Source: a plasmid
Direction: 5' to 3' (one strand)
DNA: 64,000 nt
Sequence record: NZ_CP018188.1
Shown here: positions 24,696 through 27,648 of the stretch, piece after piece
How positions within the stretch are numbered: position 1 is the stretch's first letter
Layout of the letters: every line of letters starts with the position of its first letter
Program-made: the position numbers and the translations under genes
The notes under the pieces: generated by a model
What the model was told of the DNA's origin: nothing
The model's database searches: none
The model's input: only the letters and a program-made list of their open reading frames with translations

Positions 24696-25180
24696 TAATA
24701 TTTCAGTAATGAAAACAGACGAAATGTACCTACTATTCAATTTTAGCAACGGGATAGTTGCTGGGGTAGATAGTCAAGCAATTGAATTTCTAAAACGAGT
24801 AAAAAATTATCAGTTAAATTGTAACGATTTAACAGATGAAGAAAAAGAATTTTTTGCCTATCTTGTAGAAAATGATTTCATTTCTGATGTAGAATTTAAG
24901 AATGAGCAAACCCCAATAACTGCCTATCTACATTTAACTAATAAATGTAATTTGCATTGTGTAGGTTGTTATTCTTTCGATGAGCGAAGAAATAGATGTG
25001 AAGATCTATCAACAGAAGAGATATTAAATGCAATTGACCAACTTTCTGATGTTGGAATTCAAAACCTAGTATTCTCTGGAGGAGAACCTTTATTAAGAAG
25101 GCTATGTCACAACAAACAGTTGATAAATAGCCATTTTTATAGGGGAGTATCAGAACTCCCCTACAAACTGTTATTTGCAG

Positions 25181-25675
25181 TTATCTATACTCATTTGGAA
25201 TTTCGATATGAAGTGTCTCACACAATAACTTCACATCATGTGCATCATTTTCATCAAACTCGTATCCCAGATGGAACATTACTTGACTATATGGTTCAAT
25301 ACAGGAAACCTCTATTTCCTCAATTCTTCCTTTACCCGAAAAAGTTTCTACCGGAAAACAATCCCCATCATAAAGAATTTCACCTTCGTCCGTATATTCA
25401 AAACAATGCAAATCAATAATTCTGTTTTTCAAATCTTCCCATACAGTATGGTTCAATGTTGTATATTCCATCTTAATCTCATAAAAGCCATTAGCTTTCA
25501 TTATTTCTATAAAGTTCTGATAATCGTTCTTTTCTACAAAAATGTCAATATCATTATGGGCTCTTGACTGATATCCAAGAAGAGCATCTACACCCCAGCC
25601 ACCATCAAGAAAGACTTTAATCTCCGCATCTATTGCAAATTGAAGAATCTGTTTTACATCTGTTATATTGACCAT
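25181..25675 (-). CDS. lnu(C): Lincosamide nucleotidyltransferase
   Basis: 164 aa from MVNITDVKQ with a nucleotidyltransferase fold (GGWGVDALLG...HNDIDIF). Cargo of the IS. The ORF track extends upstream to 25744. Confidence 0.7.
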   Translation of the reverse strand: MVNITDVKQILQFAIDAEIKVFLDGGWGVDALLGYQSRAHNDIDIFVEKNDYQNFIEIMKANGFYEIKMEYTTLNHTVWEDLKNRIIDLHCFEYTDEGEILYDGDCFPVETFSGKGRIEEIEVSCIEPYSQVMFHLGYEFDENDAHDVKLLCETLHIEIPNEYR

Positions 25676-25698
25676 CTTATCATCTCCACAAATTCTAA

Positions 25699-26742
25699 TT
25701 AGGCGACCAGAGGAACTGCTGGTCTGTTTGATAAATCTCTGCATTTAGCAGTTTTCAATGTTGCCAAAACGAAAGTTAAGAAGATGTTCCTTTTCTCCAT
25801 GTCGCTTTCTTTGGCGTAATTTACAAGGTTATTCCACACAAGATAGTTGTTCAGATACTTGGTAGAAACACCGTTAAAGCCACGCATAAACCTCTTTAGC
25901 TGGCTATGGTAGCTATTGATATGTTGGATATTATAAATGCCTTTCTTGGCTTTGCCAGTCTTTAACTGCACAAGGTCAATGCCATTGGCATTTGTAAATC
26001 TCACATAGGAGTTCATCTTGTCCGTAACAAGAGTGGAATTGGTCTTAATCCTACCATCATAAATATGATGTAAATCTCTTGTAGAAACTCTACCAGTATT
26101 CGTAATCTTGGAGATAGACAAGCCATTCCTATTAACCGCACAAGGAACACATACCTTTTCTTGGGACAAGCCTCTGATATGTGTAGAATGACCACGCTTA
26201 TGAGCCTTGCGTGGCATAGCAAATGTCTTACTCTTGCTATGATTGCCCTTGTACGAGATGGCGAAAAAAGTTTCGTCAGCCTCAATAATGCCGTCAAGGG
26301 TAACATCGTCTGCCATATTCTGAAGTGCATCCAAAATCTTGTGTCTCCAAAGGAATGCGGTGTTTCTGTGAATCCCACAAGCAACAGCAGTCTTACGAAT
26401 GGATAAGCCATTCATCATACAATCAATGTACTGCTCCCACACGGACAAGTCTTTTCTTGTACCAGACACAATGGAGTTCGTAGCAATCACGAAGGACTTG
26501 CCACAATCCTTACATACATATCGCTGTGTGCCATCTTTACGATGACCATTGCGAACCACATGGATACAGCCACAAAGAGGGCATACACGACCATTTGCAA
26601 AGCGTTCCTTTGCTACGAAATCTTCAATATTCAAAGACTTTACAAAGGCAGGACTTAAAAGCATTGTTTTAAGGCTTTCCTGCTCTGCGACAGTCAACTT
26701 ACCGATAATATCTAATGCGTCTTTGATAGTAGGCATATCCAA
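25699..26742 (-). CDS. IS1595-family transposase (N-terminal Zn ribbon plus DDE domain)
   Basis: CPLCGCIHVVRNGHRKDGTQRYVCKDCGKSF zinc ribbon. 347 aa. Confidence 0.75.
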   Translation of the reverse strand: MDMPTIKDALDIIGKLTVAEQESLKTMLLSPAFVKSLNIEDFVAKERFANGRVCPLCGCIHVVRNGHRKDGTQRYVCKDCGKSFVIATNSIVSGTRKDLSVWEQYIDCMMNGLSIRKTAVACGIHRNTAFLWRHKILDALQNMADDVTLDGIIEADETFFAISYKGNHSKSKTFAMPRKAHKRGHSTHIRGLSQEKVCVPCAVNRNGLSISKITNTGRVSTRDLHHIYDGRIKTNSTLVTDKMNSYVRFTNANGIDLVQLKTGKAKKGIYNIQHINSYHSQLKRFMRGFNGVSTKYLNNYLVWNNLVNYAKESDMEKRNIFLTFVLATLKTAKCRDLSNRPAVPLVA

Positions 26743-27648
26743 TTACCTCCTTCGGTGGTACTGTTTCTTACTATTATTATACGCTATTTCTCGTCAAAAT
26801 CAACCATTTGTTGTGACAGAGCCATTAAGAAAAAACATTCTTCAAATAGTGGAATATGCTAAAATAGTTGCTAAAATTCCAAATGTAATATTAATAACTA
26901 ATGGAACTATTTTTAATAAAAATATACTTTCAGAACTATCAAAATTTGTGGATACTGTTTCTGTTTCATTAGATACATACTGTTCGGATAGTGAACCATA
27001 TCTCAGAGATAAAGGAATATTTGACAAGATTATGCGGTCAATTTCTTGGTTAAAAGAATCGGGAAATAATGTCAATATTATTCCAACAATTCATCACTTG
27101 AATTCAAGTAATCTCCTTGAGTATGTAAAACTTGCAAAGGAAATAGGAACAACGATTAGTTTCAGTATTCTCAGTGCATGTTTTGAAGGCGAGTTAATGT
27201 CATATCTTCCCGATAACACTGATTTAATAAATATTAGTAAGTTTATGATTGAATCTGATGCACCAATCAATGATAGTGCCCTAGAGGATAAAACTTTAGT
27301 AGCTAGGAATTACTGTGGAGCTGGGACCTCAATGATTGCCATAGGCACTCAAGGTAATGTCTATCCGTGCCACATGTTGATGTATGATGAGTACTGTATA
27401 GGAAATATAAAGTACGATTCAATAAACAAGATGCGAGAGAAATCTGCTAATGCAAGGTTATTCAAATCATTGAATGTAGATAAAATAGAGGGTTGTTCAC
27501 AATGTCAATTCCGATATCTATGTGGAGGAGGCTGCAGAGCTCGTTCAAAATTGAAATTTGACGTAGTAGATAAAGTAGATCCATATTGTCGATTATTTAA
27601 AGCATACTATAATAAAGTTGCGGCGGAAATTATTTCTGATTAGGGAGA

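Follow-up and report, generated by a model that had tools for sequence, protein, structure and literature searches.

The DNA analysed here is a stretch of 64,000 nucleotides of a plasmid, taken from sequence record NZ_CP018188.1 and referred to at its full length as the window. In it, a gene for a radical S-adenosylmethionine (rSAM) protein with a SPASM domain, a putative peptide maturase, is split by a small transposable element that carries lnu(C), a gene for resistance to lincosamides. The structure reported in an initial annotation of this DNA was confirmed by script: the element spans 25100 to 26823, its length of 1,724 bp and its coordinates are exact, and the same 8 bp, ATTAAGAA, stand at both ends. 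Both lnu(C) and the transposase gene are read from the minus strand, against the direction of the rSAM operon. The features of the interrupted gene and of the element are these:

24682..25099, plus strand: 5' part of the rSAM/SPASM gene, native residues 1-139 of 409, including CNLHCVGC (open reading frame and comparison)
25092..25099: left copy of the 8-bp target-site duplication, ATTAAGAA (sequence)
25100..26823, minus strand: complete tISSag10/MTnSag1 element, 1,724 bp
25100..25124, plus strand: left terminal inverted repeat, 25 nt, GGCTATGTCACAACAAACAGTTGAT, 88% complementary (22/25)
25136..25167, minus strand: hairpin just downstream of the lnu(C) stop codon, 13-nt arms, 92% complementary, 6-nt loop; a possible terminator
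25181..25675 (stop codon included), minus strand: lnu(C), 164-residue lincosamide nucleotidyltransferase (NCBIfam NF000141)
25699..26736, minus strand: ISSag10 transposase, 345 residues, N-terminal Zn ribbon and IS1595-type DDE domain (NF033547, Pfam)
26776..26803, minus strand: sigma-70-like promoter match, TTGATT-16-TATAAT, 10/12 (consensus match only)
26799..26823, plus strand: right terminal inverted repeat, pairing with the left repeat (reverse complement GGCTCTGTCACAACAAATGGTTGAT)
26824..26831: right copy of the 8-bp target-site duplication, ATTAAGAA (sequence)
26832..27643, plus strand: 3' part of the rSAM/SPASM gene, with the remainder of the radical-SAM barrel and all of SPASM (open reading frame, Pfam)

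When the element and one copy of the repeat were removed, the two halves of the gene joined in frame to a single open frame of 413 residues, if started at the TTG at 24670, or of 409 residues from the ATG at 24682, which is the start used by gene callers. The initial annotation had stated that excision restores one rSAM reading frame, and this was borne out down to the nucleotide, as the restored gene was identical to intact alleles at 1,230 of 1,230 positions. The insertion point is codon 140 of 409, past the CNLHCVGC motif (CX3CX2C) but ahead of most of the barrel and of the entire SPASM domain. The 5' part runs on into the element and meets a stop at 25419, giving a chimera of 245 residues. 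Since most of the barrel and the SPASM domain lie past the break, it is a safe inference from the sequence that the cut maturase is non-functional. The view that one event both adds lnu(C) and breaks the maturase gene was thus upheld, the gene being split at codon 140 and its function presumably lost.

Analysis of the element's ends led to one correction. The annotation had described perfect 17-bp inverted repeats; the first 17 nt of the left end, GGCTATGTCACAACAAA, and of the reverse complement of the right end, GGCTCTGTCACAACAAA, agree at 16 of 17 positions, with a mismatch at position 5 (GGCTATG... on the left, GGCTCTG... on the right), and the true inverted repeat is an imperfect one of 25 nt, in which 25100-25124 and 26799-26823 match at 22 of 25 positions. 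Both ends would fit the form GGCnnTG, which ISfinder may list for a subgroup of the IS1595 family. The 17-nt end motif had just two sites in the 64 kb and was matched in 0 of 100 shuffles; therefore, chance was excluded. No second copy of the element's ends was found in the 64-kb window. The sequence ATTAAGAA alone is not rare there, with seven occurrences on the plus strand and four on the minus strand, and it is not rarity that proves the 8-bp duplication: the proof is that empty sites carry a single ATTAAGAA. The GC content of the element is 38.6%, versus about 30% in the flanks. The promoter-like match is located 5' of the transposase gene and overlaps the right inverted repeat.

The annotation had asked whether an allele with an empty site exists, and it does. 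In a scan of one genome per species, uninterrupted homologs of the maturase were found in Streptococcus raffinosi (99% amino acid identity), S. ovuberis (96%), and S. orisratti (93%). The S. raffinosi DNA is 99.4-99.6% identical to the window on both sides of the insertion, and the two alignments overlap by 8 bp, the single ATTAAGAA. Exact look-up of the 142-residue gene upstream of the maturase gene returned ten related loci from metagenomes, on the same plasmid backbone, and all ten are empty: each has a single ATTAAGAA and no ISSag10 end, and over 80 nt at the junction each agrees fully with the window sequence as restored. Altogether, the single-ATTAAGAA empty sites are those of our loci L001 and L012-L021. 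One of them, the metagenome scaffold L012, is near-isogenic to the window, with 99.99% identity to 14267-25099 and 100% to 26824-35219 and 37010-38224. The restored gene is the same as the intact genes of L012 and of L014-L020 over its whole length. The insertion is hence very recent, and the common allele is the empty one.

For the filled allele there is a single record. When the restored protein was used in a homology search, it retrieved QGU81698.1 (P0071), which equals the 245-residue chimera residue for residue and is entered as 'hypothetical protein BSR19_11255 (plasmid) [Streptococcus salivarius]', from a 188,293-bp record; the fragment of the split gene is thus already deposited, annotated merely as a hypothetical protein. 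The chimera forms a single-member cluster found on one contig. An exact search of metagenome contigs for the filled left junction gave 0 matches, and exact look-ups of the chimera and of the adjoining ABC (ATP-binding cassette) exporter in the contig index were empty, the chimera itself being present in the protein collection. A second knock-out allele of the same gene was found in L013 (10416-11645; ENA ERZ28659698 scaffold_508), where T344A turns Leu115 into a stop codon, at a site equivalent to window position ~25025, in a gene otherwise identical. The 264-residue C-terminal call of this nonsense allele occurs on three contigs, L013 and two similar ones, and a probe with it returned the nonsense allele only.

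Next, the two proteins of the element were compared with curated models. The initial annotation had called the 164-residue protein a lincosamide nucleotidyltransferase and proposed a comparison with Lnu(C), which was positive: NF000141 scored 380.8 bits (curated cutoff 300) and aligned over residues 1-164 of 164, and the Lnu(D) and Lnu(P) models reached about 200 bits, below their cutoffs. The protein is an exact match to the MULTISPECIES RefSeq entry 'lincosamide nucleotidyltransferase Lnu(C)', found on at least 1,000 contigs, and its gene has the same position on the element as in annotated copies. The mechanical open reading frame is 187 residues long; the annotated start at 25675 is preceded by GGAG, and the 164-residue version fits the family model end to end. 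The transposase, described earlier as a Zn-ribbon DDE enzyme of the IS1595 family, scored 196.5 bits on NF033547 (cutoff 75), with PF12760 Zn_ribbon_IS1595 at 28.5 bits and PF12762 DDE_Tnp_IS1595 at 50.6 bits, both above their gathering thresholds. Its sequence equals that of the MULTISPECIES RefSeq entry 'IS1595-like element ISSag10 family transposase', also on at least 1,000 contigs. In agreement, the element has the traits by which the IS1595 family is defined (PMC8101967): one gene for a transposase that has a zinc finger at its N terminus and a DDE_Tnp_IS1595 domain at its C terminus, and target-site duplications of 8 bp.

The resemblance to ISSag10/MTnSag1 that the initial annotation had noted proved to be near-identity to annotated copies. 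Over the whole 1,724 bp, the element showed 99.7-99.9% DNA identity to RefSeq-annotated ISSag10/lnu(C) copies in five genera, among them those on plasmids of Cetobacterium, Glaesserella, Ligilactobacillus, and Enterococcus, and it differs from the Cetobacterium copy by a single nucleotide. All four retrieved copies start and end at the same nucleotides and include the A/C mismatch of the repeats, which thus belongs to the element, as these are independent copies in other genera. Each of the four is flanked by its own AT-rich 8-bp duplication (TTTTATTT, TTCTGTTT, TTTTATAA, and TATAATTT). Three of these four copies (L023, L024, and L025) measure 1,725 bp versus 1,724 bp here, the result of a 1-nt indel; among the Lnu(C) proteins, M59I was observed in Glaesserella, and L154F in Cetobacterium and E. 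faecalis.

Published work describes MTnSag1 (synonym tISSag10) as an element of about 1.7 kb whose coding content is limited to a DDE transposase and lincomycin resistance; its terminal inverted repeats are 25 bp long, and it makes 8-bp direct repeats, prefers AT-rich targets with low specificity, forms a circular intermediate, and is mobilised by Tn916 via an oriT inside the resistance gene (PMC5704250). The MTnSag1 of S. agalactiae UCN36 goes back to Achard et al. 2005 and Achard and Leclercq 2007, as these papers are cited in PMC5704250 and PMC6233522. Other insertions of ISSag10-lnu(C) have been described in a prophage of S. pluranimalium, where the direct repeat is TTCTTATT, and in S. agalactiae UCN36, where the capsule operon is hit and the direct repeat is TTATTTTT (PMC6233522), and the element has been found in Brachyspira too (PMC8845278). 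The window element shares the size, the two-gene content, the imperfect 25-bp repeats, and the AT-rich 8-bp duplication. Like the UCN36 copy, it sits inside a functional operon, the capsule operon there and a peptide-maturation operon here; unlike it, it occupies an rSAM gene on an S. salivarius megaplasmid, and its Lnu(C) has about 98% identity to the reference allele, as given in the AMRFinder notes for a copy identical to it. Two other systems come close. The tISCpe8 element of Clostridium perfringens also joins an IS1595 transposase to a lincosamide nucleotidyltransferase passenger, and has 25-bp inverted repeats, 8-bp direct repeats, and mobilisation by Tn916 (PMC5704250), but its passenger is lnu(P), and the window protein reached 194.8 bits on the Lnu(P) model (cutoff 300) versus 380.8 on that of Lnu(C). 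ISCco2-type relatives on Campylobacter plasmids (H10 and H11) match the transposase portion and the ends at 95-99%, but they have another passenger (a GNAT acetyltransferase in H10) or none, and the lnu(C) segment is unmatched. By its sequence, then, the element is MTnSag1, that is, ISSag10 with lnu(C), which is known and very widespread. What is new here is the insertion site and the replicon only.

The maturase gene is part of a peptide cassette with the following two features:

22218..33415, plus strand: peptide-cassette island holding the element, absent from NZ_CP040803.1
23401..23511, plus strand: 36-residue putative precursor or signal peptide (MLKFSTKKTKKAGCVSVGALVSVSIGHYIKEVKSTV) with the ribosome-binding site AAAGGAGGAA (gene call, conservation)

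The cassette encodes the 36-residue peptide, a CPBP/Rce1-like protease, the 142-residue membrane protein, the rSAM protein, an ABC exporter, an ABC ATPase with a putative permease, and two regulators, a LytTR protein and a GHKL histidine kinase. The peptide gene has a strong ribosome-binding site, and gene calling picked it up in each of the ten related loci. S. raffinosi and the ten metagenome loci have the identical peptide, S. ovuberis and S. orisratti a near-identical one. The same cassette is present in Enterococcus sp. AZ192, with the peptide MLLFASKKGKKAGCVSVGAIFCASVGHYIKEIKSDV, and the motif common to Streptococcus and Enterococcus is KKAGCVSVGA...GHYIKE (window 23401-23511; L028 3714-3824). 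In Enterococcus and Blautia (L028, L029, and L030), the cassette comprises LytTR, kinase, CPBP, a membrane protein of about 150 residues, rSAM/SPASM, and three ABC genes; no peptide gene was identified in the Blautia cassette, which is indexed in 464 blocks of the collection. A reduced form, about 86% identical, was found at 139207-143205 of plasmid NZ_CP020429.2 (Streptococcus sp. FDAARGOS_192), where the equivalent of window 23095-23403 is joined directly to that of 29322-33014 (ABC ATPase, permease, LytTR, kinase) and the peptide, CPBP, rSAM, and exporter genes are missing. The 36-residue peptide matched no NCBIfam family, its motif had no occurrence in the literature searched, and the names given to the cassette in the databases searched are generic throughout. 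We consider that it may be a new family of pheromones or of ribosomally synthesised and post-translationally modified peptides (RiPPs).

The initial annotation had named the interrupted gene a RiPP maturase, for which its domains and context give good support. The restored protein matched PF04055 Radical_SAM (87.4 bits), PF13353 Fer4_12 (49.4 bits), and PF13186 SPASM (33 bits), and the conserved peptide gene nearby and the ABC exporter directly downstream provide the expected context. However, it fell below the cutoff of every curated maturase family: its best curated match, the StsB sactipeptide maturase model NF045574, gave 137.4 bits with a cutoff of 625, which is a resemblance only. The best relatives with solved structures in the PDB were CteB (62 bits) and SkfB (48.5 bits), and the 499 relatives found at E ≤ 1e-20 have generic names throughout. 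Thus, the protein is similar to the thioether-forming rSAM/SPASM maturases (StsB family, CteB, SkfB) in its CX3CX2C radical-SAM domain and its SPASM domain, and in the adjoining genes for a short Cys-containing peptide and a dedicated ABC exporter, but unlike them it reaches no curated family.

The cassette was in turn found to be an insertion in the plasmid. In the S. salivarius megaplasmid NZ_CP040803.1, the positions equivalent to window 22217 and 33416 are adjacent (80675/80676), and 22218-33415 is therefore an island in the backbone. Its left edge carries the C-terminal remnant of a tyrosine integrase (22301-22477, minus strand), and a fragment of IS905 (IS256-like) lies near the right edge (~33055-33198). 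S. raffinosi has the island at 99.5% identity, but in other surroundings. Taken whole, the window is DNA of a megaplasmid: window 1-22217 showed ~90-93% identity to S. equinus and S. salivarius plasmids of 126-236 kb, and window 39001-57248 was 98.9% identical to S. salivarius pSsal-YU10 over an aligned 38% of the query. The locus is a nested structure, in which the megaplasmid holds the peptide island and the island holds the lnu(C) transposon.

Collectively, the locus is best explained by a recent transposition of MTnSag1 into codon 140 of an rSAM/SPASM maturase gene on a bacteriocin megaplasmid of S. salivarius of about 188 kb, which we hold to be almost certain. In the proposed sequence of events, a Tn916-type helper, acting on the oriT in lnu(C), would have mobilised the element by conjugation, and transposition out of another replicon would have followed, a step suggested by the literature. 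What the sequence shows is that the ends of the element are marked by the imperfect 25-bp terminal repeats of the DDE transposase, that insertion at the AT-rich target ATTAAGAA duplicated 8 bp, and that the maturase is cut after its CX3CX2C motif. So cut, the maturase would be unable to work, and the 36-residue peptide of the cassette would no longer be modified. The lnu(C) gene, downstream of the transposase gene, is probably co-transcribed with it, and its product would nucleotidylate lincomycin. By analogy with other hosts of the element, the strain is expected to be lincomycin-resistant and clindamycin-susceptible; for S. pluranimalium TH11417 with ISSag10-lnu(C), minimum inhibitory concentrations of 64 µg/mL for lincomycin and 0.25 µg/mL for clindamycin have been given (PMC6233522).

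Nothing was found that contradicts this explanation; three points limit it. Annotated copies with the same or a near-identical Lnu(C) were rated 97.6-98.2% identical to the CARD/AMRFinder reference, so the protein is the widespread variant and not the exact type allele. No conjugative helper is visible in the 64-kb window. Expression of the gene, the level of resistance, loss of peptide production, and polarity on the downstream genes enter the explanation as inferred points.

An assembly artefact, in which a repeat-induced chimera placed a multicopy element in the contig, has to be weighed because the element is of the widespread kind (at least 1,000 contigs) that can cause misjoins and because the filled allele was recorded once only. 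Yet the element ends at the exact nucleotides of four independent copies, and a misjoin would create no target-site duplication, whereas here there is a precise one of 8 bp that are single-copy in the isogenic empty site; we judge an artefact to be extremely unlikely. It is also very unlikely that the insertion is old, either inherited with the island from another species or a decayed and immobile relic. The island was itself acquired horizontally, as S. raffinosi has it at 99.5% identity while other megaplasmids lack it, but the S. raffinosi site is empty, the flanks are almost undiverged from an empty allele on the same backbone, the restored gene has all of its 1,230 nt in common with intact ones, and the transposase reading frame and both ends are intact, with a transposase identical to the multispecies consensus.

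More room was left for selection. The insertion could have been favoured for abolishing peptide production, instead of or besides conferring lincosamide resistance, which would make the strain a non-producer still equipped with the genes for transport, putative immunity, and regulation. This possibility, to which we give a small weight, finds support in the independent nonsense mutation T344A of the same gene in L013 and two similar contigs, and in the FDAARGOS_192 plasmid, in which just one half of the cassette, with the ABC, permease, LytTR, and kinase genes, is left. Against it, MTnSag1 has low target specificity for AT-rich DNA (PMC5704250), for which a gene of 30% GC is a large target, and two events among dozens of alleles fit neutral loss, which is at least as likely. 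Taken further, the occurrence of at least two independent maturase knock-outs in S. salivarius megaplasmids could reflect selection for such non-producers; the lnu(C) transposon would then also bring about a social 'cheater' switch on a bacteriocin plasmid that is transmissible, an idea that we regard as rather improbable.

Other features of the window were recorded. An IS3-family element with TGATATG... termini, 1,794 bp long, occupies 35217-37010 as another insertion of recent date, with orfA at 35278-35955 and orfB at 35952-36917; it is flanked by a 3-bp duplication (ATT) at 35214-35216 and 37011-37013 and is absent from the otherwise identical L012. A lacticin-481-type lanthipeptide locus lies at 39708-47835, within the match to pSsal-YU10, and includes:

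39708-39857 and 39886-40035: lanthipeptide precursors with the identical core GNGVFKTISHECHLNTWAFLATCCS
40282-40440: third precursor
40460-43240: LanM
43267-45339: C39-peptidase ABC exporter

Three further ABC transporter genes, one for an ATPase and two for permeases, complete the locus. The core peptide is, we assume, identical to that of salivaricin G32. The layout is the same as that of the salivaricin G32 locus of S. salivarius megaplasmids (PMC3332205). Accessory genes at 19512-20977, 52903-53823, and 57549-59321 encode an AbiEi/AbiEii toxin-antitoxin pair, an APH-like phosphotransferase, and a GmrSD-type restriction endonuclease, and upstream of them are genes for SSB, a PD-(D/E)XK nuclease, an ERF recombinase, and RadC. 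As a candidate second resistance gene, the APH-like one (52903-53823) was considered and rejected, as it reached the cutoff of no curated resistance family, scoring 39 bits against a cutoff of 205. A phage origin of the window was also rejected, the only matches being trivial ones of ~180 bp. Searches for literature on the rSAM locus of S. salivarius megaplasmids, or on accessions MN480762 and MN480763, returned none.

The presence of a mobilisable lincosamide-resistance element on a bacteriocin megaplasmid of S. salivarius is of modest practical significance, and the locus adds nothing new on the mechanism of the transposon. It matters for the surveillance of resistance on S. salivarius megaplasmids and for safety screening of probiotics, since plasmids of this kind have been described as transmissible and the species in whose strains they are found serves as an oral probiotic. 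Moreover, the locus is a natural, near-isogenic knock-out of the maturase of a cassette without a named family in the sources searched, and a comparison of the filled and empty alleles could therefore help to identify the product of this cassette.

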